From positions 4,680 through 68,679 of the IMG/VR virus record IMGVR_UViG_3300025030_000011: DNA of 64,000 nt. One strand, given 5' to 3'. Source of the stretch: a virus. A program made the position numbers and the translations under genes. Below the pieces are notes generated by a model that did no database searches, was not told where the DNA came from, and saw only the letters and a list, made by a program, of their open reading frames with translations. Position 1 is the stretch's first letter. The number at the start of each line of letters is the position of its first letter. Shown piece by piece: positions 35,123-57,594 of the stretch.

Positions 35123-35722
35123 TCATGTTGTCCTCCTTGATTTCGTTTTAGGTATTTTACAACTTAAATCATAAGTTCCGTTTTTTCTATTCCCTGTACT
35201 CCCACAAGAATATTCCCAAGTTTCTCTATACACGTTTTCATCTTTAATAACAAAACTTTCACAATGAGGGCATTTATCAGAAAGCATGTGATAATTTTGG
35301 GCTTGCATTACTTCTTTTCTTCTGATCGGGTCTATCAATTTAATATATGTTGTACAAAACTTATCTGCGCATTCAACACAAAGCAATACATCTACCCAAT
35401 AATTCTTTTTTTCGTCTATTCTTTTGTATTTACAGCTAATAGGAGGGTGTTTCATCCAACCTGCGTTTGGGCCTTCTGGTTCATGATGTTCTGTTTCTGT
35501 AGGTCTTTGCTTGCCCGTAGTTCTTCTACTCTTTTTGGGGGTATCTAGGGCTTTATCTATACCTATTATTGCTTCTTCTTTGTCCTGTACTTCAATTTCG
35601 TTTCCGTCAGGTTCAACAGTAAAATATTTACTGTTATCATACTTTCTGATTTTATAACCCCTGTAATCAATTTCATGATAGGCTGGGACAATTTGTTTTT
35701 TTATGCCTGTGGTTCTTGCCAT
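35123..35722 (-). CDS. Hypothetical Cys-rich protein carrying three RTT(G) motifs
   Basis: AGGAGG RBS; MARTTG start, internal SRRTTG, terminal SRRTT. Confidence 0.65.
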   Translation of the reverse strand: MARTTGIKKQIVPAYHEIDYRGYKIRKYDNSKYFTVEPDGNEIEVQDKEEAIIGIDKALDTPKKSRRTTGKQRPTETEHHEPEGPNAGWMKHPPISCKYKRIDEKKNYWVDVLLCVECADKFCTTYIKLIDPIRRKEVMQAQNYHMLSDKCPHCESFVIKDENVYRETWEYSCGSTGNRKNGTYDLSCKIPKTKSRRTT

Positions 35723-35930
35723 GTTTTTCCTCCTTTTAATATCGGTTGATAAAATGCTTCAGTTTTTATTTTTATCATATCTTGAAATTCTTTTGAATGC
35801 TGTACTTCAGCATCGTCAATTATTATTTGATTTGTAGTTTTTCCATGTAATGCATATTTCAAAGCATCTATTTGATGGTCATTTTATTGTGCTCCTTTTA
35901 TTTCCAAATCTATCGTAGCTTTATATCTCC

Positions 35931-36230
35931 TTATATAGACCCAGACCTAGACCTAGACCTAGACCTAGACATAGACATAGGCCTAGACCCAGACCCAGAC
36001 CTAGACATAGACATAGACCCAAAGGTAAACCTAGACCTAAACCCAGACCTAGACCTAGACCTAGACATAAACATAGACCTAAAGCCAGACCTAGACCCAG
36101 ACCTAGACCCAGACCTAGACATAGACATAGACCTAGAGCCAGACCTAGACCTAGACCTAGACCTAGACCTAGACCCAGACCTAGACCCAGACCTAGACAT
36201 ATCATTTAATACATGTATTGGTGCTAGCAT
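35931..36230 (-). CDS. Ser-X repeat microprotein copy 2 (99 aa)
   Basis: GGAG RBS; MLAPIHVLNDM leader; (TCTAGG)-type array. Confidence 0.65.
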   Translation of the reverse strand: MLAPIHVLNDMSRSGSRSGSRSRSRSRSRSGSRSMSMSRSGSRSGSRSGFRSMFMSRSRSRSGFRSRFTFGSMSMSRSGSGSRPMSMSRSRSRSRSGSI

Positions 36231-36231
36231 T

Positions 36232-37734
36232 TTATACTCCAATCAAATCATTAAATATTGAAGTTTCATTTTCTTCTACTCCATCCAACGCTTGATCTAT
36301 AATTTTTGATTTAGCTTCTAACTCTTTTAAATTATCTTCATCACAAGTATTAATTCCCACAAAATAATAAGCAAAAATACAATCTGCTAATTGACCAATC
36401 CGATTAACTCTGTCTTCAGCTTGGAGATGTTTAGCAGGACTATGTGAAAGTATTTCAATTGTAGCTGTTGCGCTTGCTGCTGTTAACGTTAAACCCGTGC
36501 CTGCTGCTATTATATTTCCAGACAATAACTTTATTTTGGGATTATTCTGAAATTCCTCTACAGCTTTATTTCTTTCATTTAAAGACATACCTCCATAAAT
36601 TCTTACAGTATTATCTTTAAATTCTTCATATACTAAATCAACTATTTTTCTATGATTTGCAAATACAACAAGCTTTAAACCACTTTCAAGATAATCTTCT
36701 ATCCAATTCAATGCTGCTTCAAGTTTACCTAAAGCTGCTGTCTGGGATAGTTTTTCAGAACGTGATAGATGATCTAATGTCCTATCAGCTTTAATTGCTT
36801 TATACACATTCATGTTGTCAATTTCAAGCGGTATTGCCGTTCTTATCAATCTAGGTAAATCTTTTAGTACATCACCTTTTAAACGTCTTATCATAATAGC
36901 AGATAATTTTTGGAAAAGTTCTGGTATATTTGTTGCCCCATTCTTAGTCATTCCAAAACCGTTTGCCTTTAAATCACAATACCTTTTTGCAAATTCCCAT
37001 CTACTTGGGAATAAATTAGGTTCCACAATATTTATTGCGTTATAAGCATCAATAGGTCTATTCTCTATTAAGGTTCCTGTTACTGCAATTACTTTGGGGA
37101 TATTTTTGGAAAGTTTTATTGTTGCTTTTGTTCTAGTTGCTTTAATACTCTTTATGGCTTGAACTTCATCAAGTATCAATATTTTTATTCCTGCTGCTTT
37201 TAATACAAGGTGCCAATCAAATAAAATATCATAGTTTATTATTATGATACCTGTTTTGGGGATATTCTTTATTTCTTGAAATTTTAAATCACCTGAACCG
37301 GATAAATAAACCTCTTGTATACTTTTCTTTATTTTGCCTGATACAACATAGACTCTGTTTTCTTCCCTACGTTCTAACCACATAAATGTTTCCTTAGCCC
37401 AGTTTAATTTTAATGTTGCAGGACAAACAACTAAAACTAATCTGTCATTAGGATGTAATTGTAAATAACCCAATGATTGGGCAGTTTTGCCCAGACCCAT
37501 ATCATCCCCAAGAATTGCTCTTCCTTTTTGTCTATCAATAAAATAAACACCGTCTAATTGATAGTCAAAAAGAGGTTTAGCAATTTTGAGGATATGAAAA
37601 TCTTTAGGTCTATTTAAAGCTTTATATTTAATTATCTCTCCTGCTTTATTATAACTGTCTTTAGGCTTGCTGGTTTTAGTTATAGCGGGGTTTTTCTTGT
37701 TTAGTAATGCTTTGACTTGCTTTAAATCTATCAT
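36232..37734 (-). CDS. SNF2-family (HARP-like) helicase
   Basis: GDDMGLGKT, VVCP, DEVQ, TGT.IEN, QAEDR..RIGQ. Confidence 0.9.
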   Translation of the reverse strand: MIDLKQVKALLNKKNPAITKTSKPKDSYNKAGEIIKYKALNRPKDFHILKIAKPLFDYQLDGVYFIDRQKGRAILGDDMGLGKTAQSLGYLQLHPNDRLVLVVCPATLKLNWAKETFMWLERREENRVYVVSGKIKKSIQEVYLSGSGDLKFQEIKNIPKTGIIIINYDILFDWHLVLKAAGIKILILDEVQAIKSIKATRTKATIKLSKNIPKVIAVTGTLIENRPIDAYNAINIVEPNLFPSRWEFAKRYCDLKANGFGMTKNGATNIPELFQKLSAIMIRRLKGDVLKDLPRLIRTAIPLEIDNMNVYKAIKADRTLDHLSRSEKLSQTAALGKLEAALNWIEDYLESGLKLVVFANHRKIVDLVYEEFKDNTVRIYGGMSLNERNKAVEEFQNNPKIKLLSGNIIAAGTGLTLTAASATATIEILSHSPAKHLQAEDRVNRIGQLADCIFAYYFVGINTCDEDNLKELEAKSKIIDQALDGVEENETSIFNDLIGV

Positions 37735-37748
37735 AGCTTTATACCTCC

Positions 37749-37970
37749 TTACCTAGACATAGACCTAGACCTAGATATAGGCCTAGACCCAGACCCAGAC
37801 CCAGACCTAGACCTAGACCTAGACCTAGACCTAGATATAAACCTAGACCCAGACCCAGACCTAGACATAGACATAGACATAGAGCCAGACCCAGACCTAG
37901 ACCTAGAGCTAGACCTAGACCTAGACCTAGACCTAGACACATTATTTAATATATGTAATGGTATTAGCAT
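37749..37970 (-). CDS. Ser-X repeat microprotein copy 3 (73 aa)
   Basis: ATG 1 nt after the upstream stop; MLIPLHILNNV leader. Confidence 0.65.
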   Translation of the reverse strand: MLIPLHILNNVSRSRSRSRSSSRSRSGSGSMSMSMSRSGSGSRFISRSRSRSRSRSGSGSGSRPISRSRSMSR

Positions 37971-37971
37971 T

Positions 37972-38292
37972 TTATTTTTGTTCCTTTGGTAAAGCATGTG
38001 TCCATGAATACACATCGACTATACTATTTATACTAACACGTACAGGAACATTAACAGGCTCAACTTCGTCCAATACTCCATCATTTATAGCTTGTGTAAA
38101 TCTCCCACTATCAGCAATCCATGCTGCTTCCTCTAAAAATATAAATTTATCCGTCACTTTAAAAATACGACCTGTCAAATGAAATGTTATAGTGCGAATA
38201 TAAACACATTCATCTACTATAAAATCTTCATTGTTGTTTTTCATCAAAGCTTTATAAACTTCCCCACGCACATTCACATTTGATTTTGTCAT
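37972..38292 (-). CDS. Small beta-rich protein, possibly Sm/LSm-like fold
   Basis: VYIRT..FHLTGRI..V....IFLEEAAWI pattern; AGGAG RBS. Confidence 0.6.
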   Translation of the reverse strand: MTKSNVNVRGEVYKALMKNNNEDFIVDECVYIRTITFHLTGRIFKVTDKFIFLEEAAWIADSGRFTQAINDGVLDEVEPVNVPVRVSINSIVDVYSWTHALPKEQK

Positions 38293-38678
38293 TGTTTCAG
38301 TCTCCTTTTGTTTTATGATTTGATTTTATGTTTATACTTTATTTTATTGTAAAAAGCTATTTAATTATTTCAAAACCGTAGTAAAATACCCCAGCACAAA
38401 TTGTATTATTATTGAATTTTATGTCGTATAATTCTGAATATGGGCCTAAATGCATATCTCCTATTATCCCCTAATGATATTTACTATATTCAGAATCTTC
38501 TATTTCCCAAAGATAGTATTCAATTAAAATACTATCCATAAAATTAGCTTGAATAATCCCTATATTCAAAGCCCCCCCCCCATGCTATGTTACATCTTTC
38601 TTGATAAATTTCTCCTGCCGTATAGTCCATTTTATTGTGCTCCTTTTATTTCCAAATCTATCATAGCTTTATACCTCC

Positions 38679-38936
38679 CTATATAGACCTAGACCTAGAC
38701 CTAGATATAGGCCTAGACCCAGACCCAGACCCAGACCTAGACCTAGACCTAGACCTAGACCTAGATATAAACCTAGACCCAGACCCAGACCTAGACATAG
38801 ACATAGACCCAAAGCTAAACCTAGACCTAAACCCAGACCTAGACCTAGACCTAGACATAGACCTAGACCCACACCTAGACCTAGACCAAGATCTAGACAT
38901 AGACACATTATTTAATATATGTAATGGTATTAACAT
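38679..38936 (-). CDS. Ser-X repeat microprotein copy 4 (85 aa)
   Basis: GGAG RBS; MLIPLHILNNV leader. Confidence 0.65.
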   Translation of the reverse strand: MLIPLHILNNVSMSRSWSRSRCGSRSMSRSRSRSGFRSRFSFGSMSMSRSGSGSRFISRSRSRSRSRSGSGSGSRPISRSRSRSI

Positions 38937-39111
38937 AGCTTTATGCTCCAATTATTGTTAATTATGAAAACCCCTTGGAATATCCCACGGTTTACATTAT
39001 AGGATTTTTCATTTTGTTTATCTCCTTTTAAATAGATAATGCAATATTGCTAGGATGATTAATATTAATATGTATTTCATTTTGCTTACCTCCTGAAGTT
39101 TCCCTGTTTAA

Positions 39112-40245
39112 TCATGTAAAGCTATGCATTTTTACTAATTCGCCCCAAGGGACAGTTCTTCTTGTGTTTTCAGTAGCTACCCAAAGAACTGGAAAATCAG
39201 GTTCATCCCCAAAACTGTCACATTCCAAATCCGTGAGATATACACCACAACATGGTAAATCTTCTTGCTTCATGCTCCATGCTATTGCTGGGGCAAAGTC
39301 AGTACCACCACCTCCTTTTGCATTCAATTTAACCGGTCTATTTTCGCTTGTAAACTCTTCAACATTAGTCACCCTTGTATCACAGTAAATCACCCTTGCT
39401 GTTGTGTTGTACTGCGTCAAAATGTCGTCAATTTCACTTGCAAACTGTTTTAAATCTTCTTGGTTAACACTCCCAGACGTATCAACATAAATATCAAGTG
39501 GTGGCATTTCATGATTATACAATGAAGGAAGGATAAAACCAGTCCCCATATATCTTGTGTTAGGGCGTTTCCACGTATAGTCATTTCTTGCTACTTGTTC
39601 CACAAAACGGTGTAAAGCCTCTCTCCAATTTACTTTTGATTCATTCAAATCTGATATTAATCTTGCAAGACTAGCAGGCAATTTCCCGCAAGCTTTAGCT
39701 TGATTTGCTGCTTGTGTTGCTGCTATTTGCCATTCCTGCTGTTGCAGTTCCTTTTCAGATTGACTTGCTTCTTCTGTTGTTTCGTCATTTCCTGTATAGT
39801 CTAGAACCTCTCCAGGAAGCGGCTTATTATCTTGTTGCTGTTGTTTCTGATACAAAATGTTATATACTTCGTCTGTTGTTTTCCCCAGAAAATCTTTATT
39901 ATACAAATACTCTCCCGGCAAAACAAAACCAACATCAAGCAAAATAGGATTAATCACATAATCAGCAGCTTGATTATAAATTTTTGCATCTCTGTTGCCT
40001 CTATTTACATGATGCCCAAACACACAGTGTAAAACCTCATGAGCATTCAATGCTTTTGTTTCGTCTAATGTGCATTTTTCGATGAAATCAGCATTGTAAA
40101 TCAGCTTTATTCCATTCGTCGCAATTGTTTTGCATAGTTCATTATTTTCTTCGATTTGCAGTTTTAATGCAAGTGTTGCAAAAAATGATTCCTCTAAAAT
40201 TAATGCTGAACGTGCTTTGACAATTTTCTTTAATATTTCATTCAT
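39112..40245 (-). CDS. Metallopeptidase-VWA protein (DUF2201-like)
   Basis: HEVLH HEXXH; VDTSGS MIDAS; GGGGTDF; YLTD. Confidence 0.85.
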   Translation of the reverse strand: MNEILKKIVKARSALILEESFFATLALKLQIEENNELCKTIATNGIKLIYNADFIEKCTLDETKALNAHEVLHCVFGHHVNRGNRDAKIYNQAADYVINPILLDVGFVLPGEYLYNKDFLGKTTDEVYNILYQKQQQQDNKPLPGEVLDYTGNDETTEEASQSEKELQQQEWQIAATQAANQAKACGKLPASLARLISDLNESKVNWREALHRFVEQVARNDYTWKRPNTRYMGTGFILPSLYNHEMPPLDIYVDTSGSVNQEDLKQFASEIDDILTQYNTTARVIYCDTRVTNVEEFTSENRPVKLNAKGGGGTDFAPAIAWSMKQEDLPCCGVYLTDLECDSFGDEPDFPVLWVATENTRRTVPWGELVKMHSFT

Positions 40246-40714
40246 TTTATCCCTCCATTGAATTATAAAGATATGATTCTTTAAATGTTGGTTTTCTTGT
40301 AATTTCAATAAGTAAAAAATTAGCTTCAATCCATTCAGGATACCAATATTCTGACGCGCTTTTTGTATTGTAATTTTCTATTTTAATAATCATGGCTTTA
40401 TACCTCCTTTTTATTGGTTTGATACTTCTATAATTTGCTATAACCTATAATCAGACTATAGCAAACTAACAAATATCAATTCCAGACTTTTTTAATAAAG
40501 CGACCTGTGGCATATCGCTTGACAATAAACTTTGTTCCACCTCTTGCATAAATATAAATCATACCAATTTTATCATTGTCAATTGCAGATTGTACTTTGT
40601 TGAGTGTCGCTTTATTCCCATGTTGTTTGACAAGCTTTTTCAGTTCCAGAAAAGTAATCGCAGTTTCCATTTTAAATCCTCCTTTAATACATTAAAAGGT
40701 TTATTAAGTGACTT

Positions 40715-41596
40715 CTACCCCATGAAACCAGACATTTGGTCTAAAATCTTTTGCGCTTGTTTTGCCGCCTCTTTCCTTTCTTTTTTATTATCCCGTAAAT
40801 CTTGGGGATTTAAATCACAGATTTTAACCTCAATCTCCTTTCGCATTTCTTCCAATTTTATATCATCCGTTAAATTCAGTTTTGGCAGCATTTCGACTAA
40901 TTCCATTACATTACCTATCAAACTGTTACGAAAAATAGCATCAGGCTCTTTTAACTTTTCTACAACAGCATTTATTTTATCATAGAGGCGCTGCCAAACG
41001 TCCTGCATAGCATTATTTATCGCCTCTTGTATCCTTGTGTTATTTTGCGCTTGCAAGTTTTCCAATTCTTCCTTTTGGAGTGCCATACGGAAATCTTGTG
41101 AGATAGGAAGCGGGATAACATTTGTGTCAAAATAAAACTTGTGCCGGAGTGACGACAAAACGGGATAATCATTTTCCTTGTACATTTTACCTAGCTCTTT
41201 TTGCGCCTTGATTTTGTGGTTTTCATATTCCTTCAAAAAGTCGTCTACATTGTTTTGTACTATGCTTTTAAACTTCCTCATTCCTTCCGTATAGTCCAGA
41301 TAATTCATACTTGTTAGTATTCTATATCCATCATCCGTCCACGGAAGGGTTTGGGAATAATGAAAAATTCTTGCTTGTGCAATTGCACTAGATATAGCTT
41401 TTAATGCCTCTTTAGCAACAATTGATTTGTAATATGTCCCACTTCCTGGGAGTGCTTCAAAATCGGTTTGGGCCTGATTTGATACTTCTTTATCTTGTTT
41501 TCTACCTATCCATTGGCCAATATTCAATGACACTAGCATTGCTTTTTCTGCTAGTTCATTATGTCCAGTTGCTTGTTTCATATTTGATTTAACCAT
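40715..41596 (-). CDS. Conserved phage protein of the AAA/VWA module (DUF3150-like)
   Basis: TLPW.D.G.R, DYP, FRNSL.....N motifs; context. Confidence 0.55.
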   Translation of the reverse strand: MVKSNMKQATGHNELAEKAMLVSLNIGQWIGRKQDKEVSNQAQTDFEALPGSGTYYKSIVAKEALKAISSAIAQARIFHYSQTLPWTDDGYRILTSMNYLDYTEGMRKFKSIVQNNVDDFLKEYENHKIKAQKELGKMYKENDYPVLSSLRHKFYFDTNVIPLPISQDFRMALQKEELENLQAQNNTRIQEAINNAMQDVWQRLYDKINAVVEKLKEPDAIFRNSLIGNVMELVEMLPKLNLTDDIKLEEMRKEIEVKICDLNPQDLRDNKKERKEAAKQAQKILDQMSGFMG

Positions 41597-41627
41597 GATT
41601 TTATATCCTCCCCTTTATAGTTTTATT

Positions 41628-41867
41628 TCATTCCCTGTAATCGTTATATATTTCTATTGTATCAGTATGTATAACAATTTGACCATATTCTGATATAAAA
41701 TTTTGCAATTGTTCAAGTGTATTTATTTCAATTTCAGGCAATAAATCATCATTTACAAAAATTTCTCCATCTTCATCTTCATCAAAGATAAAACCAAGTT
41801 TATGATATTTTTTTATTTCTTCCATATTTGTGAATAAAGTTTTACACATAATTAATTTGTATTTCAT
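41628..41867 (-). CDS. Hypothetical acidic protein
   Basis: C-terminal IEIYNDYRE; RBS. Confidence 0.55.
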   Translation of the reverse strand: MKYKLIMCKTLFTNMEEIKKYHKLGFIFDEDEDGEIFVNDDLLPEIEINTLEQLQNFISEYGQIVIHTDTIEIYNDYRE

Positions 41868-41906
41868 GACTTTGTTCTCCTTTTATTTGAGATAGTTTAA
41901 ATCAGT

Positions 41907-42887
41907 TTAAATCAATGTATCTTGATGTTTTGCACTCCAGGCAATAAATGCTTTAGTATTGCAGATTGTTTGATTTTGCTTGACCGAATCCCGTATCATC
42001 AAAACTTGGAATTCTGGAGGCATTCTATCAGTGAATTTTAGTATACGCTCTATTGTGTTTTGACTTGCCTTGCGTGCAAGTCCCAAAGATAATGCATATA
42101 TAACTGCCGGTTGTGTTGGCATTTCAATAGAATCTGGATTCAACAGTATTGCATCGATGCTGGGAAGTTTTGTGTATATCTGCATGAAACCTATAAACTC
42201 CGCCGCATAACCTTCACCAACAGCCCCTTTATAAGTTTCAAGTTGTAGATGTGCTGGGATATTCATACCCATTAAAGCTCCCAGACTTTCAACAGTTCTG
42301 GGACAAGGATTATTTACTAGATCGGCTGTGGGGTTGCCGGAATACATCAAACCCGGCCGGAACTTATTGAATGCTACCAATTCGACAGGTAAATTATCAA
42401 GCGCCCATGTATCAATCCAGTCCTCCATATCAAAGGCGACATGTATAATACTGTCGAATCTTGACTTGATAGGTTCAAGCAATCCAGATACCCCGGCCCG
42501 GTCTTCACGCCGATTTGTCGCACCTATTACAACTACATTTTTATTGTCCTTTACCCTATCTAGGAATGACATTTGAGCCGCTTGCACTGCCGGAGCACCT
42601 TGTCCAATATCATCAGCAAAAACAATATGCAGTTTATCAGCATTAAAAATACGTTCTAACTCCCCAAAAGGTTTTATTTCCGGTTTACCGTCAATGATAC
42701 ATGGCAAACCTTTGAAATCTGTTGGATCACTGATAGAACCGTAAATCACGGTCAAATCAGCATTCAGTTCTTTTTGTACTTCCTTCACAATTGCTGTTTT
42801 GCCAATACCTGGGGGGCCAACAAGCAATACACGACGACTAGCGTTTATACAGGCTGTTAAAATTGTTTTACAATCTGAAATTTTCAA
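41907..42887 (-). CDS. MoxR-like AAA+ ATPase
   Basis: GPPGIGKT, FADD, ATNR, SRF, PR motifs. Confidence 0.85.
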   Translation of the reverse strand: MKISDCKTILTACINASRRVLLVGPPGIGKTAIVKEVQKELNADLTVIYGSISDPTDFKGLPCIIDGKPEIKPFGELERIFNADKLHIVFADDIGQGAPAVQAAQMSFLDRVKDNKNVVVIGATNRREDRAGVSGLLEPIKSRFDSIIHVAFDMEDWIDTWALDNLPVELVAFNKFRPGLMYSGNPTADLVNNPCPRTVESLGALMGMNIPAHLQLETYKGAVGEGYAAEFIGFMQIYTKLPSIDAILLNPDSIEMPTQPAVIYALSLGLARKASQNTIERILKFTDRMPPEFQVLMIRDSVKQNQTICNTKAFIAWSAKHQDTLI

Positions 42888-43030
42888 GACACACCTCCAA
42901 ATTTAAGTTTTAAGCCGTTGTTTTAGCAATCGGCTATATACTGCTATTACTTTTTGATTTAATAGCCTTGACGGATAAACCAGATACATACAATGATACA
43001 AATTAAACCACCTATTGACATAAACATGTT

Positions 43031-43291
43031 TTAAACCTCCTTAGATTTAATATATAGAGCATCCCAAATACCTTCTAACATATAATACATTTCTTTTGCT
43101 GTTAATCTGTTATTTATTTCTCTAACAATATATCCACTACAATTATCAAGAAAATATCCACCAATATTCCATTCCCAGCCTTTTGCATTTCCTACATCTC
43201 TAAACTGCCCAAACGGTTTGTTCAACAGAGTGCAAATTAAAGCTAGTTTTTTGTTTAGCATTTCTTTAGTTATACGATATGCCATAACCAT
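43031..43291 (-). CDS. Hypothetical early protein
   Basis: AGGAG RBS. Confidence 0.5.
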   Translation of the reverse strand: MVMAYRITKEMLNKKLALICTLLNKPFGQFRDVGNAKGWEWNIGGYFLDNCSGYIVREINNRLTAKEMYYMLEGIWDALYIKSKEV

Positions 43292-43372
43292 CTCCTTTTA
43301 TTTGGGGTTTGTTGTTTCTATCGAATGCCTGAAACCTCATAAATACCAGGCATTCTAACAAGCAACAAACAT

Positions 43373-48160: not shown

Positions 48161-49006
48161 ATGGGGCGTACTACAGGAAATAAAATAAAGAAGAGAGAAT
48201 TTCCAAAAATTATAAAAAAGAGTTTAGAGTTCCAAAAAACTATTGACCTGAATAAAGATAAACCTATGCGTGGGGCACATCCAATGGCCCAAAGAAGGAT
48301 AGACTTGGGGTTGCCTACAAGGGTTGAAGAAAGAAAGAAGAAATTGGGGTTATCCCCAGAACCTATTTATGATGGGCTTAGATTTCCACACATAGGTTAC
48401 ACACTAAGCAAGGAGTACGGATTCACTCAAGCACAATTGGCCCAAGTTTTTGATGTAAAGCTGAATACAGTAGAAGTTTGGATGATTAAACACAAAGAAT
48501 TTGCAATGATGGTGAGAAAGGGGAGAGATGAATATGACGGTGCTAATGTAGAGAATGCATTATTGAAAAAATGTTTAGGGTATACCTTTGAAGAAAAATC
48601 AATAAAGAGAATAAAGATAAAAGGTAAAACAGCAGAAGGTTTAGAAGTATCTGTACCGGCCACAGAGATTGTTATGACAACTAAGCATATGTCTCCTGAT
48701 ACAAAAGCAATTATGTTTTGGTTGCAGAATAGAAATAGTGCTCGTTGGAAAAACATGACTTATATAAAAGCTGATATTGAACAGCATACAAGTCATGTAG
48801 AAGTGAATGCAGACATTACCAATATGAAATCAGAAGACATAAGAGCATTACGTGACATAATCGTAGCACAACAGCAGAAAGCGATTCCAGAGGAATGTGA
48901 GAGGGTTACGAATGCGGATTTAGACACTATGCTAGATAAGGCAAGAGGGGTTAGAGCTATAGAGGATGCTATCATAGTACCACAAATTGATTATAAGGAG
49001 GTATAA
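48161..49006 (+). CDS. terS: Terminase small subunit-like HTH protein
   Basis: W...H.EF..., VENALLKK..GY, PDT.A..FWL.NR. Confidence 0.7.
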   Translation: MGRTTGNKIKKREFPKIIKKSLEFQKTIDLNKDKPMRGAHPMAQRRIDLGLPTRVEERKKKLGLSPEPIYDGLRFPHIGYTLSKEYGFTQAQLAQVFDVKLNTVEVWMIKHKEFAMMVRKGRDEYDGANVENALLKKCLGYTFEEKSIKRIKIKGKTAEGLEVSVPATEIVMTTKHMSPDTKAIMFWLQNRNSARWKNMTYIKADIEQHTSHVEVNADITNMKSEDIRALRDIIVAQQQKAIPEECERVTNADLDTMLDKARGVRAIEDAIIVPQIDYKEV

Positions 49007-49823: not shown

Positions 49824-50287
49824 CTAAAAAAGAAGAAGCATGTTTAGCAATGCATTGGGTAGCAACAAATGAATTAGGCGTACATGAAATTCCTGGGCCT
49901 GAATCAGAAGCACGTATTATAGAGTATGATTCACATACTACACTGAAAGCTACTTCAGATAGCACTCCTTGGTGTTCCGCATTTGCTAATTATGTAGCAG
50001 ACAGAGCAGGAGAACAATATAAATTTAAAGGTACGCATTCAGCAGCAGCAAGGTCTTGGCTTGATTGGGGTGTTGTTCTAGCTACTCCGGTCAAAGGTTG
50101 TATAGTTGTTATAGACAGGAAGGATGCAAACAATCCTAACGCCGCCCATGTATGTTTTTATGATAGTAATAACGGTAACGGTACTATAAAATGTTTGGGT
50201 GGAAATCAAAGTGATAGTGTTAAGTTTTCCAATTTCCCTACAACTAAAATAATAGCATATCGTGCGCCTAAAGTGGAGGAAGCGTGA
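49820..50287 (+). CDS. Endolysin, NlpC/P60-CHAP-like (TIGR02594-type)
   Basis: PWCSAF, ARSWL.WG, HV.F, LGGNQ. Confidence 0.85.
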   Translation: MTKKEEACLAMHWVATNELGVHEIPGPESEARIIEYDSHTTLKATSDSTPWCSAFANYVADRAGEQYKFKGTHSAAARSWLDWGVVLATPVKGCIVVIDRKDANNPNAAHVCFYDSNNGNGTIKCLGGNQSDSVKFSNFPTTKIIAYRAPKVEEA

Positions 50288-50532
50288 ACGGTAGATACTT
50301 TTGGAACAAACTTGTAGATCGGTTTCAAAGATTATGTTTAACGATAGTGAGTAAACAGTGGGTAGTTTTTGGGATAGCAACAGCATTACTTATTTATGAT
50401 TTTATAGGTGATGAAATTTGGAGCTTTCAAGCCTGTTTTATCATAGGTGCTAATGTATTCCAGAAATATAAAGGTGTAGGAGATACACCTAAAGCGTATT
50501 TAGGTGATACACAATCAAAGGAGGTTGAATAA
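50284..50532 (+). CDS. Putative holin
   Basis: Small with hydrophobic segments; overlaps the endolysin stop. Confidence 0.5.
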   Translation: MNGRYFWNKLVDRFQRLCLTIVSKQWVVFGIATALLIYDFIGDEIWSFQACFIIGANVFQKYKGVGDTPKAYLGDTQSKEVE

Positions 50533-50829
50533 ATGTTTAATGTGCAACTACCCTGGAAACAAATAGGATATGGGATGTTGATAGCATTAATAATTGGGAT
50601 TTTTTATTATTATGTATCGTATATCCCAAATAAGCTTGAAGAAGAAAGACTTAAAAATAAAGCATTACAGGAACAGGTAGAAATAGATAAAAAGACAGTC
50701 ACCCTTCAAACTGATACACAAAAAGCTAAAGAAAGGATAGATCAAGATGTTTATGCACAACTTTCAACGATACGGTTTAAACCTGTTCCTCATAGGACTG
50801 TTATTGTGCCTCATGGGGTGCGCCGATAA
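50533..50829 (+). CDS. i-spanin (Rz-like)
   Basis: N-terminal TM helix + coiled coil. Confidence 0.6.
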   Translation: MFNVQLPWKQIGYGMLIALIIGIFYYYVSYIPNKLEEERLKNKALQEQVEIDKKTVTLQTDTQKAKERIDQDVYAQLSTIRFKPVPHRTVIVPHGVRR

Positions 50830-51025
50830 GGTTTGCATAAGACCTACATTAGCGTATGAGCCTAATCCTTCTTTAATTGAAGTGGAGACAAACGATGAAG
50901 GCGGTTTAGATGAAGAAGAAGTAAAAGATATGTTAAGTAATTTGGAATTGTATCAAGGGGCTTTAGATAAATGTAACGAAACCTTACTTTTGTATAACTT
51001 CAGTATAAAAGGAGATGAACAATAA
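50747..51025 (+). CDS. o-spanin (Rz1-like lipoprotein)
   Basis: Overlaps the Rz 3' end; LLLCLMGC lipobox. Confidence 0.6.
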   Translation: MFMHNFQRYGLNLFLIGLLLCLMGCADKVCIRPTLAYEPNPSLIEVETNDEGGLDEEEVKDMLSNLELYQGALDKCNETLLLYNFSIKGDEQ

Positions 51026-51184
51026 ATGTCTAACTCTAATATGTTTAATAATGAGACTTGCGGGGATTGTAAGTTTTGTCTGGAAAAAGAATGGTGCTCT
51101 TGGTTTCGGCAGAATGTTGATTGCTTTCAAGAAAAGTGTAAAGCTTTTATAAGAAGGTAGTTAAATACATATAATTGAATATTT

Positions 51185-51218
51185 AAGCCCCTAATGCTTA
51201 CGGCATTAGGGGCTTTTT
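51185..51218 (+). terminator. Intrinsic terminator after the lysis cassette
   Basis: AAGCCCCTAATGC-TTACG-GCATTAGGGGCTT followed by Ts. Confidence 0.85.
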
Positions 51219-51342
51219 GTTTATAATCATACAAGCTTAACATAATTAATATATTTAACTAAATAAATAATTATATATTTATTTATTTATGTTTGTTATC
51301 ATTCATACATATACTAAATTTAAACGGCAAAGGAGTATGTGT

Positions 51343-51795
51343 ATGCCAAGACCGACTTTTGTAGTTACTGGAAGTATTAGCGTTACAACAACTAAAGTAG
51401 GCGCTTTTCAGATAACAACTCCCGCGACAGGTGTCCCAATTCTTTTAAATCCTACCAAACTATCTTCTTCTAAAGATAACGTAATTGTTACTTTGTTAGA
51501 AGACTATTCTTTTACAGATGCTCTTGAATCTGCTTTAACCCCTCTTGATATTAGACGCGCTGACCCTAGTGAAGCAGCAGATACAGCAGTTAAAGCGTAT
51601 GTAGATATAACGGCTGTTGCTGGAGCAGGTGCTTTAACTTTAGATAGTTATTCTTTTGCTGCTGCTTCTGATTCCGTTTCAGTTCATAATTCTTTCGTAC
51701 TCAAACCTAACACTACATATCTTCTTGCTATAACAAACAGTAACGCAAATACCGCAGTTTGCAAATATACTTTATCCTTTACTGAGGTTCATTAG
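51343..51795 (+). CDS. Hypothetical beta-rich virion-like protein
   Basis: LKPNTTYLL.ITN pattern; AGGAG RBS. Confidence 0.55.
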   Translation: MPRPTFVVTGSISVTTTKVGAFQITTPATGVPILLNPTKLSSSKDNVIVTLLEDYSFTDALESALTPLDIRRADPSEAADTAVKAYVDITAVAGAGALTLDSYSFAAASDSVSVHNSFVLKPNTTYLLAITNSNANTAVCKYTLSFTEVH

Positions 51796-51797
51796 TT

Positions 51798-52061
51798 ATG
51801 TCTGGAGATAAAGAGCTTATCCCAAGAGCTAGAACTTTAACTGAAGCGGATATGTTAGCTTTAACAGAGTTACTTAAAAACCAACATAATTGTAGATTTA
51901 ATAATGTGTCCCCAGAAGAAATGGATTTAGTAAAGGATTTATTGAATATATATAAAGAAACACGATCAGAAGTAATTAAATGGATTGTTAAAGGCATCAT
52001 GTATGCAATTTTGATTATTATTGTATTGGGCGCATATTTAAAATTTGGTGTAAAACATTAA
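51798..52061 (+). CDS. Small membrane protein
   Basis: C-terminal TM helix; H.CRF motif. Confidence 0.55.
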   Translation: MSGDKELIPRARTLTEADMLALTELLKNQHNCRFNNVSPEEMDLVKDLLNIYKETRSEVIKWIVKGIMYAILIIIVLGAYLKFGVKH

Positions 52062-52073
52062 ATTGAGGTAGTT

Positions 52074-53678
52074 ATGGTGAGGACAACAGGGATTAAATCT
52101 AATCGTATAATAACACAAGACGACACAGCTAATTTTACGATAGACCCTGTGAAAATACAAAGGTTGATGAACACACCTTTAGAAGCTTTAGATAAAGCTT
52201 TGGCAGAAAGACATTTAGCAGAGTTTATCAAACAGCATTGGATATTTATTGACCCACATGATTATGTTCACGGTTGGCACTTAGACGCAATATGCGAACA
52301 CATGGAAGCAGTTTTTGCAGGGGAAATACTAAGGTTAATGATTAACATTCCCCCGCGACATATGAAATCGTTGGGTATATCTGTTAGTTATCCTGCTTGG
52401 GTTTGGACAAAGAAACCTGAAACACAATTTATTACATTCTCTTATGCATCTACTCTCACAATTCGTGACGGTGTTAAATGTAGACGTATTATAGATAGTC
52501 CTTTGTATCAATCACGTTGGGGTCATAAATATCATCTAACAGGAGATCAAAATACTAAGATAAGATTCGATAATGATAAAGGCGGTTATCGAATCAACAC
52601 GTCTATAGATGGTGTTGGTACAGGTGAAGGTGGGGACGTTATTATCATTGACGATGCTAATAACGTAGCTGAAGCAGAATCAGAGATTACAAGGGTAGGA
52701 ACAAATATATGGTTCGATGAAACATTGCAATCACGTTTCAATGACCCCAAAACAGGGGCTTTAGTTTCAATCCAACAAAGAACACATTATGATGATCTTT
52801 CAGGTCATATAATGGATAAATATGGAAAGGATTATGTAGGTCTTATCCTTCCTGCCGAATATGAAGTAGAATCAAAAAGAAAAATGGCGTTAAGAACATT
52901 CCACGGCTGGAGAGGTGATCCTAGAACAGAAGAAGGTGAGTTACTTTGGCCGGAACGATTTGGAAAAAAAGAAATAGATAAACTTAAAATAGCTTTGGGG
53001 CCGTATGCAGCAGCAGGGCAACTCCAGCAAAGACCTTCACCGAGGGAAGGTGGGTTAATCCCTCTTACAAAGTTTCAAAGATATAGTGTAATGCCTGCGA
53101 TAGAAACTTGGAAAAGACTATCTCTTGTATTTGATACAGCGCAAAAGGAAAAAGAGTTAAACGATTATTCAGTATGTCAGGCTTGGGTTGAGACTTCACG
53201 GGGCTTATTTCTTCTATTCATTTGGCGCAAAAAGTGTCGGTATCCCGAACTAAGGCGCAATGCAAAATCGCTTTGCGAAGAATGGAAGCCCCATGAAGTT
53301 TTAATTGAAGATAAATCTTCGGGTTCTAGTTTAATACAAGATTTGCAGGAATATAAAAAGTTTCCGATTATAGGTATTGATCCTAAGAATATTGATAAGA
53401 CAATGAGGATGGAAACAGAAGCAACCGCTATTGAGGCTGGTTTAGTCTGGATTCCTGAAACAGCAGGGGTAGAGATCAACTTAGAGCATAGCGTAAAGCA
53501 ATGTCTTTGGTTGACAGATTTTGAAGAAGAATGTGCTCAGTTTCCAATGGGTCAACATGACGATCAAATAGACCCTATGAGTATGTATTTGAAACGAGTT
53601 AGAGAAAGACGCCAGAAACAACCTCCTGTAGTTGCTCCATTAATAGATGATTTTTCTGGAGAATCCCATTGGAGGTAA
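52074..53678 (+). CDS. terL: Terminase large subunit
   Basis: NIPPRHMKS, TGEGG, IIIDD, QQR, DTA, EDK.SG, HDDQID. Confidence 0.92.
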   Translation: MVRTTGIKSNRIITQDDTANFTIDPVKIQRLMNTPLEALDKALAERHLAEFIKQHWIFIDPHDYVHGWHLDAICEHMEAVFAGEILRLMINIPPRHMKSLGISVSYPAWVWTKKPETQFITFSYASTLTIRDGVKCRRIIDSPLYQSRWGHKYHLTGDQNTKIRFDNDKGGYRINTSIDGVGTGEGGDVIIIDDANNVAEAESEITRVGTNIWFDETLQSRFNDPKTGALVSIQQRTHYDDLSGHIMDKYGKDYVGLILPAEYEVESKRKMALRTFHGWRGDPRTEEGELLWPERFGKKEIDKLKIALGPYAAAGQLQQRPSPREGGLIPLTKFQRYSVMPAIETWKRLSLVFDTAQKEKELNDYSVCQAWVETSRGLFLLFIWRKKCRYPELRRNAKSLCEEWKPHEVLIEDKSSGSSLIQDLQEYKKFPIIGIDPKNIDKTMRMETEATAIEAGLVWIPETAGVEINLEHSVKQCLWLTDFEEECAQFPMGQHDDQIDPMSMYLKRVRERRQKQPPVVAPLIDDFSGESHWR

Positions 53679-53681
53679 TAA

Positions 53682-53888
53682 ATGAAATTCAGGGAAGTAC
53701 AGGTATTGAGAAATAAAACTTGGTATTTTGAACAATTTGATAATTTACTCAAAGATGATATTTTTTGTTTTGCCGATGCACCAAATAATATATTTCAAGC
53801 TACTTCTGAACCTGTACCTATAACTGACTTTGACGGTAAACATCGTGGTAATATGAGAATAGAACGAAAATGCTACTTCATGGAGTGA
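53682..53888 (+). CDS. Hypothetical protein
   Basis: GGAGG RBS; between terL and portal. Confidence 0.5.
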   Translation: MKFREVQVLRNKTWYFEQFDNLLKDDIFCFADAPNNIFQATSEPVPITDFDGKHRGNMRIERKCYFME

Positions 53889-53892
53889 TAAA

Positions 53893-55149
53893 ATGGCCCG
53901 TACAACAGGTAAAAAACCGTCTGCGAATCTTACGGAAATAGGCGGTACAGGTTTACGCGCATTCGGTGGGGTAATAGGTGAAGAATTTTTAAGACAATTA
54001 CAAGGGGCAAAGGGCTTAAAGATTTACAGAGAAATGAGTGATAATGACCCTATTATTGGTTCAATTCTTTTTATCATAGATAAGTTGTTAAGGAATGTAA
54101 CTTGGAAAGTAAACCCCACCGATGATAGCCCGGCAGCAAAAGAAGAAGCTGATTTTGTATCAAGTTGCATGATCGATATGGAACATTCATGGGAAGAATT
54201 TATAAGTGAATTACTTTCAATGCTTATATACGGTTTTTCATTGCATGAAATAGTTTATAAGATTCGTGAAGACGGAAGAGTGGGGATAGCTAAACTTCCT
54301 ATACGCGGTCAAGAAACTATTTGGAGATGGAATACAGATGGATGTATGAGGGATTTTGTTTCTATAGATCAACTCTTACCTACGGGCGGGAGTTTCACAA
54401 TACCTGCTGATAAATTGTTGTTGTTTAGAACACAAAGCTATAAAAATAATTTCCAAGGTCGTAGTATTTTACGAAATGCTTTTAGACCCTGGTACTTTAA
54501 AAAGAAACTTGAAGAGGTTGAAGCAATAGGGGCGGAAAGAGATTTAAACGGTTTCCCTGTTGCTTATGTTCCTCCAAATTTACTTTCTGCTAATGCTACT
54601 GATGAAGAAAAAGCAACACTAGCTGCAATTAAACGTATGGTTACAAATGTACGTATAGATGAACAAATGGGAATGGTATATCCTTTAGCATATGACGAAA
54701 ACAACAATCAGTTGTATAAGTTTGAACTTATGTCAACATCCGGGACAAGACAGCATGATACAAATTCTATAATTACACGTTACAGTAAAACAATGGCAAT
54801 GACAGTAGCAGCAGACTTTATATTTTTAGGTTTAGATAAGGTTGGGAGTTTTGCACTTTCGTCGGATAAGACTTCTACATTTTCTATGGCAATGGGGGCA
54901 TGGCTAAAAGCAATAGCTGCTGTATTGAATAGAAAGCTTGTCCCTAAACTAATGACGTTAAACGGTGTGCCTAAAGAATTATATCCCCAATTTGTCCCTG
55001 GGGATATTGAGAAAGAAGACATAGCTACATTTGTAGATGCAATTTACAAACTTGTTGGAGTTGGAGCATTGCAACCTGATGATGATATAGATGCAAAAGC
55101 AAGAGAGTTGCTTAATCTTCCAATTAAGATTTCTAACGGTACAATGTAA
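53893..55149 (+). CDS. Portal protein (DUF935/Mu gp29-like)
   Basis: EIG.TG, YGFS..E.VY, GRSILR...W.FK, GSFALS. Confidence 0.88.
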   Translation: MARTTGKKPSANLTEIGGTGLRAFGGVIGEEFLRQLQGAKGLKIYREMSDNDPIIGSILFIIDKLLRNVTWKVNPTDDSPAAKEEADFVSSCMIDMEHSWEEFISELLSMLIYGFSLHEIVYKIREDGRVGIAKLPIRGQETIWRWNTDGCMRDFVSIDQLLPTGGSFTIPADKLLLFRTQSYKNNFQGRSILRNAFRPWYFKKKLEEVEAIGAERDLNGFPVAYVPPNLLSANATDEEKATLAAIKRMVTNVRIDEQMGMVYPLAYDENNNQLYKFELMSTSGTRQHDTNSIITRYSKTMAMTVAADFIFLGLDKVGSFALSSDKTSTFSMAMGAWLKAIAAVLNRKLVPKLMTLNGVPKELYPQFVPGDIEKEDIATFVDAIYKLVGVGALQPDDDIDAKARELLNLPIKISNGTM

Positions 55150-56147
55150 TGGGAAAGAAGCAGGATGAACAATTAGCAGCTATGCAGCAAGCGGCTGATA
55201 GTAAAGTTCCAAAAATAAAAGCTGCTTTCATAGCTGCTGTAGTAGAAATAAGAGAGACTTTAGCAGAAGCAAAGAAGATAGAAGCGGCTTTAGCAGTGGG
55301 GGCTTTTGACGATGCTGTTTTAGCGACACGTATAGCAGAAATGGATTCGTTACTTTTTGGAATAGGTTTGGGAAACAACGCTTTTGTATTTTCAAATCAA
55401 CTTACAGAAACATTTAACCTTGGAGCAACAACGGGCATTAAACAATTACCTGAAGTAATGCAACAAGCAATCGGTTTTGATACTTTAAACAATAGAGCTA
55501 TAAATGCAATCAAACAAAATACTGGAAAAGTAATACAAGAATTAACAGGTAGTAGTAAACAAGCAGTAAGTAATTTAATACAACGTCTGTTGTCAGAGAA
55601 TATACCTCCTGCAAAGATGGGACGTGAAATAAGACAGTTAATAGGTCTAACTGATAGTCAGATGAAGGCTGTAACGAATTTTCGTCTTCAGCTTGAAACC
55701 AGAAGCATTCTAGGGTTAACCCCTCCTGAAGATAGGCGGTTGAATGCAATAGAAGCAGCACAAGTAAGACGACATATGAATCAAGGAACAATGCAACAAG
55801 ATAAAATAGATGAAATGGTGGAAAAGTATTATCAAAGATTATTGAACAAACGAGCATTAGATATAGCTAGAACAGAATCTATGCATTCGATTAATCAAGG
55901 TCAACAAGAAGCATGGATGCAAGGATTAGATCAAGGTGTTTTAGATATAAATAAAGATAGAAAATTTTGGTTAACTGCTGGAGATGAAAAAGTAAGAACA
56001 ACACACAGAGCTATACCAGCTATGAATCCTGGGGGAGTACCTATAACAAGTCCTTTTGCCACACCATTTGGATTTGTAATGTCTCCTGGGGATTATAATG
56101 TTGGACTTATCAACTGTAGATGTTCCGCAATTTTGATTTCAACGTAA
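55149..56147 (+). CDS. Mu gpF/SPP1 gp7-like minor head protein
   Basis: IARTE, W.T.GD.KVR.TH, INCRC. Confidence 0.85.
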   Translation: MGKKQDEQLAAMQQAADSKVPKIKAAFIAAVVEIRETLAEAKKIEAALAVGAFDDAVLATRIAEMDSLLFGIGLGNNAFVFSNQLTETFNLGATTGIKQLPEVMQQAIGFDTLNNRAINAIKQNTGKVIQELTGSSKQAVSNLIQRLLSENIPPAKMGREIRQLIGLTDSQMKAVTNFRLQLETRSILGLTPPEDRRLNAIEAAQVRRHMNQGTMQQDKIDEMVEKYYQRLLNKRALDIARTESMHSINQGQQEAWMQGLDQGVLDINKDRKFWLTAGDEKVRTTHRAIPAMNPGGVPITSPFATPFGFVMSPGDYNVGLINCRCSAILIST

Positions 56148-56156
56148 GGAGAATAT

Positions 56157-56564
56157 ATGACAGATAAACAGGCAATAATTTTTAAAGGAGAATTTACTGG
56201 AGAAGTAGATAAGGTAAATAAGATTGCTTACGGTTGGGCGTATGTAGCAAAAAAGGGTGATACTCAAATTGTAGATCATTCAGGAGATATTTGGGATATT
56301 AAAGAAATTGAAAAAACAGCACATGATTTTATAGCATGTCGCACTGGTGGAGAAAGTCATGTGTATAAAGGTGGTGCTGTACTTGTAGAATCCCTTGTAT
56401 TTTCTGAAGAAGTACAAAAAGCATTAGGTATTGATCTTGGGAAAATTGGTTGGTTTGTTGGATTTGAAATATTAGACGATGATTTGCTAGAAAAAGTACA
56501 GAAAGGAGAACTCTCCATGTTTTCCATAGGCGGGACTGGAGAAAAGGAGGAAATAAATGGCTAG
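56157..56564 (+). CDS. XkdF-like prohead serine protease
   Basis: D..GD, AH.F, GWFVGF, KGE..MFSIGG. Confidence 0.8.
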   Translation: MTDKQAIIFKGEFTGEVDKVNKIAYGWAYVAKKGDTQIVDHSGDIWDIKEIEKTAHDFIACRTGGESHVYKGGAVLVESLVFSEEVQKALGIDLGKIGWFVGFEILDDDLLEKVQKGELSMFSIGGTGEKEEING

Positions 56565-57594
56565 AACTACAGGAGCAAAACATAAACTTAGTAATGTGAA
56601 ATTGGATGAAATTTCATTCGTGGGTAAAGGTGATAATCCTGAAGCACATATTATCCTTCTAAAGAATCACCCAAGCATAATATTGAGCCTTGGGAAGAAC
56701 TATAAGGGTAAAGACAAAGCTGATGTGCTAAAAAAACATTTTGAAGAATCCAAGAACATACAGAAAGGCGATGGGGATGCCAAACTGTTTCAAGATATAG
56801 TTGATGATAAAGTAATCAGAGATAAGCTTTGGAATTTAGTTTGGATTTTAGAAGATTCAATTTCATCTATTTCGTATGATGATGAATGTACAAACAAACA
56901 GGAAATGATTGAACAGAGTGTTTCACAATTCAAAGACGCAGTATCACAACTAACAGGAGGTAACACCGTGACGAAAGAAGAATTGGAAAAAGCATTGGAA
57001 GTAGAAAAAGCAAAGTCTGCTGATCTTGAAAAGCAACTTGCTGATGTAAAGAAAGAAAAAGAAGATTTGGAAAAAGCTAAACCTGCACCTGGAGAAGTAT
57101 GTAAAGCGTGTGGACAGAAAATGCCGGAAGTAAAGAAAGAAGAAATTGATAAATCGGCACTTCCTGAAGCAGTAGTAAAACAGCTTGAAGAAATTGAAAA
57201 AGAAGCAAAACTCAACAAAGAAAAGATTGAAAAGTTGGAAGATGAAGCAATTACCAAAGAATGTATTGAAAAAGGTAAAACTGTTTCTGCGATTGGTAAA
57301 GCTGAAGTTGTTGGGGATATTTTTAAACAGGCAAGCAAAGTAAGTAAAGAATTTGCTGAAAGTATCTATAACATTTTCAAAACTGCGGATGCCCGTATCA
57401 AAGAAAGTGGATTGTTTAAAGAAGTTGGTGGTAGTGATGGCGGAGAAGAATTGACAGCTATTGATAGACTGAATAAAGCTGCGGAAGAACATCGTAAAGC
57501 TAACCCTACGTTGACAAAAGAACAGGCTTGGGATTTTGTATATAAGAACAATACGGAACTGCGTAAAGCGTATCAGGAAGAATCTCGCAAATAA
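56557..57594 (+). CDS. Protease-associated/scaffolding protein (nested GTG start at 56968)
   Basis: DEISFV....N.EA N-domain; coiled coil; internal AGGAGG-GTG in frame. Confidence 0.7.
   Translation: MARTTGAKHKLSNVKLDEISFVGKGDNPEAHIILLKNHPSIILSLGKNYKGKDKADVLKKHFEESKNIQKGDGDAKLFQDIVDDKVIRDKLWNLVWILEDSISSISYDDECTNKQEMIEQSVSQFKDAVSQLTGGNTVTKEELEKALEVEKAKSADLEKQLADVKKEKEDLEKAKPAPGEVCKACGQKMPEVKKEEIDKSALPEAVVKQLEEIEKEAKLNKEKIEKLEDEAITKECIEKGKTVSAIGKAEVVGDIFKQASKVSKEFAESIYNIFKTADARIKESGLFKEVGGSDGGEELTAIDRLNKAAEEHRKANPTLTKEQAWDFVYKNNTELRKAYQEESRK

Follow-up and report, generated by a model that had tools for sequence, protein, structure and literature searches.

The stretch of viral DNA considered here (the window, 64,000 nucleotides) comprises bases 4680-68679 of the single-contig IMG/VR record IMGVR_UViG_3300025030_000011 (68,679 bases; G000 below). 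It encodes five unrelated proteins that all start with the peptide M-x-R-T-T-G, namely a 199-aa zinc-cluster protein, the small and large terminase subunits (TerS and TerL), a Mu-type portal and a 345-aa scaffold-like head protein. The genome is complete, with direct terminal repeats according to its IMG/VR class, measures 68.7 kb and has a guanine-plus-cytosine (GC) content of about 35%; the best match to its TerL in the phage collection is 42% identical, and no cultured phage is closely related. Its replication and recombination genes encode a PolB-exonuclease-like polymerase, a beta-like clamp, a clamp loader, a DnaB-like helicase with a DnaC-like loader, a primase, an SNF2 helicase, SbcCD, a RecA/UvsX-like recombinase, SSB, a resolvase and ThyX, and the early region also holds a TET-associated glycosyltransferase (TAGT) and a module of an AAA ATPase with a DUF2201 metallopeptidase/VWA protein. 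The head module is of the Mu type, with TerS, TerL, a Portal_Mu portal, a MuF-like protein, an XkdF-type protease and a capsid protein. Annotation against Pfam and/or PHROGs covered 59 proteins, about half of the open reading frames (ORFs), mostly small, lying outside the scan.

The five tagged starts lie where the sequence-only reading of this DNA had placed them, and each is the first start codon of its own ORF and has a Shine-Dalgarno-like site. The codons of the five tags are exactly those listed earlier, and a lysine stands within two residues after the glycine in every case. Enrichment against a shuffled proteome, which had been proposed as a check, was strong: in a heuristic set of 105 G000 genes, 0.001 x-RTTG starts were expected and 5 were observed (Poisson P for at least five, 3e-17). 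Among 20,000 column-preserving shuffles, 19,667 contained no such start, 332 contained one, a single shuffle contained two and none contained five. The tetrapeptide RTTG occurs seven times in the G000 proteome, comprising the five N-terminal copies, one in the linker of the zinc-cluster protein and one in the tape measure protein.

All of the near variants that had been listed beside the five tags are present as sequences, although their standing differs. The RecA/UvsX-like recombinase (GRTSG after a GTG start) and the Holliday-junction resolvase carry variant tags, as does a 185-aa protein whose MPRSTG start stands, while its label as UvsY-like could not be confirmed. The MRTTKK start of the KTSC-domain protein is likewise real, but its membership is doubtful, the gene having neither a Shine-Dalgarno site nor an ortholog in the relatives. 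The tail tube (start at 62325, MAETTG) is not a member, since its relatives have MATTGY or MPTSNF, with no arginine. The features of the window that bear on the tag are collected in the table.

Tag carriers, internal copies and other features of the window (positions count from the first base of the window)
Feature	Position	Strand	Tag or motif copy	Family match or remark
KTSC-domain protein, possible but uncertain member	7476..7721	-	MRTTKK	PF13619
Holliday-junction resolvase	12317..12820	-	MSRTTTVN (variant)	phrog_1770
RecA/UvsX-like recombinase	12813..13955	-	(GTG start)GRTSGTS (variant)	PF00154, phrog_97
Phage SSB	14459-15802	-		phrog_224
185-aa protein	16883..17440	-	MPRSTGRK (variant)	no known family; adjoins phage SSB gene
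Phage polymerase	20224-22119			
TAGT	24697-25521	-		PF20691, E 9e-44
6-bp tandem array, ~19 copies	34732-34848			
Zinc-cluster protein (unk199), 199 aa, two domains	35123..35722	-	MARTTGIKK	
C-terminal copy in unk199	35126..35143	-	KSRRTT, then stop	
Linker copy in unk199	35513..35533	-	KSRRTTG	residues 64-70, between the two domains
6-bp tandem array, ~44 copies	35936-36198			
6-bp tandem array, ~31 copies	37751-37938			
6-bp tandem array, ~37 copies	38684-38904			
AAA module	39112-42887	-		
TerS	48161..49006	+	MGRTTGNK	phrog_309, E 1e-25
TerL	52074..53678	+	MVRTTGIK	
Portal, Mu-type	53893..55149	+	MARTTGKK	PF06074, E 1e-36
XkdF-type protease	56157-56564			Pfam; 135 aa
Coiled-coil, scaffold-like head protein, 345 aa	56557..57594	+	MARTTGAK	
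104-aa protein	59299-59613			after major capsid gene
Copy in 104-aa protein	59563..59583	+	KSKRTTK	basic C-terminal tail

In TerS the tag caps a basic N-terminal stretch of some 80 residues, and in TerL it sits on a predicted disordered arm (residues 1-20, predicted local distance difference test score [pLDDT] 35-42). In the portal it makes up 8-14 additional, lineage-specific residues that precede the conserved E-I-G-x-T-G-L core; close solved homologues of the portal (chains 11bp_A, 9mt4_B and 9c39_A; E 1e-67 to 2e-80) align from query residue 7. In the 345-aa head protein the tag directly precedes a conserved HKLSNVKL strand. This protein had been labelled protease/scaffold, of which the scaffold-like part holds and the protease part does not, the protease being the ORF directly upstream; a 218-aa ORF downstream also matches a PHROG scaffold family. 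The protease ORF overlaps the start of the tagged gene by 8 nt (window 56157-56574), and the N-terminus of the 345-aa protein has an E-I-S-F-V-G-K-G-D-N-P strand, which we take to be of the kind seen at protease-scaffold junctions.

The family of the zinc-cluster protein has no Pfam or PHROG match, 16 of 30 representatives start with MART and 20 of 30 with MAR, members end in similar basic R-R-T-x tails, and up to three motif copies occur in one protein. The AlphaFold2 model has a mean pLDDT of 89, which is lowest at the ends and in the linker (73 over the first 10 residues, about 70 in the linker). No match in the PDB was found with Foldseek at E <= 0.001 (best E for the zinc domain, 0.09), and the BFVD database returned one match, an unnamed protein (1e-4, TM 0.14), the only other resemblance there being that of the small N-terminal domain to DUF2188-like mini-proteins. 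The ESM Atlas gave viral hypothetical clusters only, with scores of at most 0.83. Folding of the zinc domain (residues 80-192, with the family alignment) together with portal residues 1-30 yielded a score of 0.00, which is no answer and weighs neither way.

Searches with TerL and the portal in a large protein collection brought out a clade of environmental relatives. Conservation was assessed in four relatives taken from IMG/VR, namely G001 (68.4 kb, GC 38%, completeness 95%), G002 (51.7 kb, 47%, 71%), G003 (65.1 kb, 49%, 90%) and G004 (18.9 kb, 49%, 26%), and in the fragments L001, L003 and L083. As the sequence-only reading had asked of a true tag, it is kept in the homologues of related phages and lost in distant ones, a check that was run on portal homologues and on loci. 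Among the 50 closest portal homologues (at least 52% identity), 24 have M.?R[TS][TSK] somewhere in residues 1-60, compared with none of the next 70. In 22 of these 24 the motif stands at the called start; in P0124 it is shifted inward by one residue, and in P0164 it is preceded by the excess of an over-long gene call. The other close portal homologues mostly start with M-A-R or M-R followed by basic residues. A scan of 162 loci for M.?R[TS][TS]G starts recovered real genes outside G000 only in L001, a 99%-identical fragment, and in none of the other 160 loci; three further matches are antisense to other genes and lack a Shine-Dalgarno site. In nearly all scanned loci TerL is only 40-46% identical.

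Within the lineage, which consists of uncultured phages with Mu-type heads, the peptide recurs at the starts of orthologous proteins with small changes. TerS starts MARTKGVSRK in G001, MARTTIIQTK in G002, MARTTIISTK in G003 and MARTTIFQTK in G004, and TerL starts MRTTKPKY in G002, MSRTTPVS in G003 and MRTTGYKQ in G004. The portal begins with MGRTKIPKK in G001, MARTTKPT in both G002 and G004 and MARTTAVS in G003, while the fragments L003 and L083 have MARTKGITK and MARTKFTK. For the 345-aa head protein the starts are MARTKGKVK (G001), MARTTGPT (G002 and G004), MARTTAVT (G003) and MRTKKHK (L083); in longer form, the relatives' starts read MARTKGKVKTHKLSNVKL, MARTTGPTHKL, MARTTAVTPK and MRTKKHKL. 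The RecA-like protein starts MARTTSTK in G001 and MARTSNKP in G002, the zinc-cluster protein starts MARTKGIAKK in G001 and MARTTGKP in G003, and the G001 ortholog of the 185-aa protein starts MRTNKMK. Altogether, M-[AGSV]-R-T-[T/K] is kept with different codons on six or more orthologous families across G000-G004, L003 and L083. Starts of the form M.?RT[TK] number 7, 6, 4 and 5 in G000, G001, G002 and G003, as against means of 0.06-0.08 in within-protein residue shuffles, of which none in 2000 reached the observed count in any of the four genomes.

Different basic arms are found in further sublineages, where the head protein has M-A-R-R-L-R, and TerL (P0020, which starts MSINRIIRPQRSG) and the portal (P0154, which starts MAINRPSRSGS) have M-x-I-N-R. 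P0020 and P0154 each lie on a contig of 71,605 bases and probably come from one genome, in which case a sister lineage would have a shared N-terminal arm of its own, the third and unlike the others. A further relative, the 14.4-kb contig L163, encodes a TerL that is 67% identical to that of the window and was binned in a metagenome-assembled genome labelled Draconibacterium orientale. Because these phages show strong Shine-Dalgarno usage, a Bacteroidota host for L163 is doubtful, and the binning may be spurious.

The residue that follows R-T differs between genomes and tends to be uniform within them. Lysine occupies this place in 0 of 11 copies in G000, 6 of 8 in G001, 0 of 9 in G002, 0 of 6 in G003, 0 of 5 in G004, 2 of 2 in L083 and 1 of 1 in L003, so that G000 has an RTTG flavour and its nearest full-length relative an RTKG flavour, internal copies included. 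Within the zinc-cluster family, N-terminal and linker copies agree at this residue in five of the six proteins that have both. When 55 portal cores were placed in a quick maximum-likelihood tree, G000 (T flavour) came out as sister, with a support of 91, to a clade of seven rows, six of which have the K flavour. The K label undergoes six changes on this tree, at least three of them forced by well-supported branches, which indicates that the flavours have switched repeatedly and recently.

The motif had been described as N-terminal, and a strict restriction of this kind does not hold, because linker and C-terminal copies exist. In addition to the two further copies in the zinc-cluster protein, one lies in the 104-aa protein encoded after the major capsid gene. 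The G001 orthologs of both proteins have the corresponding copies in the K flavour of that genome, KSSRTKG at the matching linker position of the zinc-cluster protein and KKSSRTK at the end of the other. In G002 and G004, an HNH-AP2 nuclease ends in RSKRTTK, the tail of a small HNH nuclease has RSSRTTP, an HTH_36 protein has an internal RSKRTTN and a RuvC-family resolvase (PF02075 in G002) starts MSRTTGKK. The carriers in the lineage therefore also include a small head-module protein, junction resolvases, HNH nucleases and a helix-turn-helix protein. The internal form [KR]-S-x-R-T-[T/K] occurs 3, 2, 3 and 0 times in G000, G001, G002 and G003, with shuffle means of 0.05-0.07; out of 2000 shuffles each, 0, 3, 0 and (trivially) all 2000 matched or exceeded the observed count, and the internal form is enriched beyond chance in three of the four genomes.

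The earlier proposal that selection acts on the peptide rather than on the DNA is borne out by synonymous codons that differ both within and between genomes. The arginine of the tag is encoded by AGA, AGG, CGT or CGG and its threonines by ACA, ACT, ACC or ACG, in genomes ranging from 35.1 to 49.2% GC. The same residues with differing codons over such a range indicate that the conserved object is the peptide.

The motif exists, is under selection at the peptide level, is conserved among close relatives, is portable between protein ends and linkers, and co-varies within genomes. From this behavior we infer a portable motif through which all carriers dock to the same partner, most likely a protein, and this is the interpretation that we favor, though tentatively and with a confidence that falls somewhat short of even. 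Its core would be R-T-[T/K]-(G); at a free N-terminus M-x- would come before it, within a chain [KR]-S-x-, and in every case it would sit in a basic, flexible arm, linker or tail. All carriers would present the same peptide to one partner, most likely a protein (a hub, a chaperone or a remodelling ATPase), which would bring or hold them together where the phage DNA is recombined and packaged. The strict register, with arginine at residue 3 after a small residue that permits removal of the methionine, suggests that the free N-terminus belongs to the epitope. The co-variation of copies within genomes fits one common reader, and uniformity within a genome, divergence between close relatives and the N-terminal register are together as expected for ligands of a single, co-evolving protein partner. 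A single hub that couples recombination to packaging, as the sequence-only reading had envisaged, may be this partner.

Several observations weigh against a common docking partner, itself a putative protein. The carriers are almost all DNA-handling proteins with flanks rich in lysine and arginine, both of which a nucleic-acid ligand explains without a hub. The TerL of G001 starts MLNKQEQ and is untagged, while the TerS, portal and head protein of the same genome are tagged, so that at least one carrier can do without the tag. The flavour switch that separates G000 from its nearest sampled relatives hit every copy but that of RecA, which keeps T in G001, and the co-variation is based on five long records and two fragments, effectively one well-sampled T/K switch. 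Moreover, tag codons lean A-rich in the GC-richer relatives (AGA or AGG for all five arginines in G003, as against 30% genome-wide), and the mRNA at tagged starts is slightly less structured (mean -3.5 vs -6.2 kcal/mol, P = 0.03). Some nucleotide-level pressure at gene starts acts too, the A-rich lean being expected near any start codon.

The strongest of the alternatives, doubtful but to be taken seriously, is that the motif is a hook for nucleic acid, in which the arginine of x-R-T-[T/K]-G, with its lysine and arginine flanks, inserts into a DNA groove like an AT-hook-like arginine. Each carrier would thereby gain an extra non-specific hold on the phage DNA, and the zinc-cluster protein with its three copies would be an architectural DNA binder. 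By family annotation, 11 of the 14 carrier families across the five genomes act on DNA (TerS, TerL, portal, RecA-like protein, two resolvase types, two HNH nucleases, HTH_36 protein, zinc-cluster protein and possibly SNF2), the flanks are basic, up to three copies occur in one small protein, and the phage SSB has a disordered tail with four or five similar basic blocks. AT-hooks proper are likewise centred on arginine: in the passages of PMC4466236 that deal with them, the R-G-R-P hook of HMG-I(Y) and the AT-hook-like sequences Q/RGR of H-NS and Lsr2 or VGR of Ler are minor-groove motifs in which the arginine has small neighbouring residues. The tag resembles them in being short and arginine-centred, with basic flanks, several copies per protein and DNA-associated carriers. 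It departs from them in its core, which is x-R-T-[T/K] in all instances, with threonine after the arginine, and not R-G-R or Q/R-G-R, in a flavour that is uniform per genome and differs between close relatives, and in copies that are mostly exactly N-terminal. A generic DNA ligand leaves unexplained why there should be one flavour per genome, why close relatives should differ and why the arginine should be fixed at residue 3. The motif is also absent from the polymerase, helicase, primase, clamp and clamp loader, and is present on the scaffold-like protein and the small head protein, which have no evident need for DNA binding.

Two further points concern the nucleic acid itself. DNA modification was considered as the cause of the T and K flavours and rejected, because the only DNA-modification gene found, that of TAGT, is present among the five records in G000 alone and does not track the T flavour shared by G002-G004; a search for Tet_JBP gave no match anywhere, control genomes included, and is hence uninformative. 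The TAGT gene in its own right suggests that the DNA of G000 is hypermodified. On the RNA side, the window has no known RNA elements (Rfam at gathering thresholds) and no tRNAs (tRNA scan), and a known RNA partner is accordingly not seen.

Four 6-bp tandem arrays (TAGACC/AGACAT on the + strand), with conserved flanks, bracket the genes of the zinc-cluster protein, the SNF2 helicase and a 106-aa protein. Each of them lies, on the coding (-) strand, within a small ORF that starts MLIP[IL]HILN and continues in Ser-Arg, Ser-Met and Ser-Gly dipeptide repeats. As the conservation of the flanks extends beyond the stop codon, the arrays may represent DNA elements and not genes. None of them occurs in G001-G004, and they were discarded as a DNA target of the tag.

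A more far-reaching version of the docking idea, which we consider improbable, is an address code resembling a histone tail. Here A-R-T-[T/K]-G, with its internal copies, on the packaging motor, portal, scaffold and recombination proteins would be recognized by a dedicated reader and would physically couple recombination-dependent replication, branch resolution and packaging at one site, reader and tags co-evolving between flavours. The reader could possibly be the zinc-cluster family, itself with up to three copies, or the conserved AAA/VWA module. Like the 'ART' tail of histone H3, K-flavour tags would begin A-R-T-K after a removal of methionine that the small second residue suggests, with a floppy, lysine-rich tail behind, and one carrier family has a small Cys-cluster domain. 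Unlike histone H3, the tag belongs to a bacterial virus, the likeness extends over only four residues, and the zinc domain has no significant match among solved folds. Other candidates for the partner were set aside, the 'acidic loop' of the clamp because it is an ordinary, conserved interdomain region, and SSB as a hub because the small beta domain embedded in it lacks conservation in G001. The C-terminal half of SSB, about 190 residues, is of low complexity. It contains four or five repeats of a basic and then an acidic block (PKRSRK[SA]KEE...), together with an embedded, small beta-rich segment as well as a terminal Cys cluster; in G001 the ortholog carries another, lysine-rich repeat.

Also improbable is a substrate motif for an enzyme, whether an unfoldase or remodeller signal (read by a host ClpX-like protein or by a phage AAA ATPase with its metallopeptidase/VWA partner) or a site for a kinase or other modifier on the invariant threonine or arginine. 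Either would govern how long oligomeric assemblies bound to DNA last or how active they are. Most carriers, judging by their families, assemble into rings or filaments, N-termini, C-termini and disordered linkers are the places of unfoldase signals, and R and T are the two invariant residues. The module of AAA ATPase (326 aa), a 293-aa protein of no family and the DUF2201 putative metallopeptidase with a VWA-like domain is conserved in G000, G001, G003 and L163; the PHROGs label of the DUF2201/VWA protein, 'HNH endonuclease', conflicts with Pfam. Recognition signals of ClpX are described in PMC5415555 (see also PMC3983244) at the termini and disordered linkers of assembly-forming proteins, phage proteins included. 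The tag is like these AAA+ unfoldase signals in standing at free termini or in a disordered linker of such proteins; unlike them, it matches no sequence class, and unfolding or degradation of the carriers finds no support here. No kinase or modifying enzyme occurs among the 59 scanned G000 proteins (the mostly small ORFs outside the scan apart), cleavage at residue 3 has no evident purpose, and there is no obvious reason to mark portal and terminase for turnover. Besides, nothing ties the AAA module to the tag, and it was rejected as tag-linked, since no copy is found at the ends of its proteins.

An effect on translation start, by which the codons or the nascent M-A-R-T-T would favor initiation or early elongation and the shared sequence would be a by-product, is very unlikely. 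It could account for the slightly looser mRNA at tagged starts and for the A-rich lean of arginine and threonine tag codons in the GC-richer relatives, but not for the copies in linkers and at C-termini, which vary together with those at N-termini. Furthermore, the major capsid gene and most genes with a strong Shine-Dalgarno site have no motif, the A content of codons 2-7 is not raised (0.40 in tagged genes vs 0.43 in others), and CGT and CGG are tolerated for arginine. An artefact, be it chance, mis-called starts or a DNA repeat spread by recombination between gene 5' ends, has only the shortness of the motif in its favor and is excluded as far as sequence analysis permits, to the point of being negligible, by shuffles that never reach the observed counts, by tagged starts that are each first in their ORF with a Shine-Dalgarno site, and by conservation at the amino-acid level across differing GC with codons that differ among copies in one genome.

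The docking motif was also compared with systems in which short peptides are shared by unrelated proteins, and none of the known systems considered fits as a family. [quoted passage not shown] The tag is like the CTS in being a short N-terminal peptide shared by unrelated proteins of one phage. It is unlike the CTS in that its carriers include TerS, TerL, a RecA-like recombinase, resolvases and HNH nucleases, which we take from their families not to be head cargo, and in that it also occurs in linkers and at C-termini, with no conserved cleavage-type site after the tag on direct reading of the sequences. Clamp-binding motifs, both bacterial ones and the tails of T4, are very short, lie in floppy N-terminal, C-terminal or internal segments of unrelated DNA enzymes, have one reader and are lineage-specific. 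The tag shares with them its brevity, its floppy setting, its many unrelated carriers and its lineage-specific sequence, but it is polar and basic rather than hydrophobic, head proteins are among its carriers, and the phage polymerase, expected to be the first client of the beta-like clamp, has no copy at either end. In model phages the N-terminal tail of TerL docks to TerS, and the TerL tag similarly sits on a disordered N-terminal arm of 20 residues; unlike in such docking, G001 has an untagged TerL beside a tagged TerS, portal and head protein, and TerS and many other proteins carry the same tag. The literature covered, supplementary files lying outside it, yielded no description of the motif or of the concept of such a tag. 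To our knowledge, the CTS head cargo of T4 and clamp clients are the only cases in phages where a terminal peptide common to many proteins directs them to a single partner.

Overall, the core packaging and assembly machinery of this phage (both terminase subunits, the portal and the scaffold-like protein) shares one label with recombination enzymes, and this label changes in concert between close relatives. As the tags come in two natural flavours, the question lends itself directly to tests with peptides. A reader, should one exist, would represent a new organizing principle for joining recombination, branch resolution and packaging in tailed phages, and the motif would provide a minimal portable tag of 5-7 residues for directing proteins to that site.

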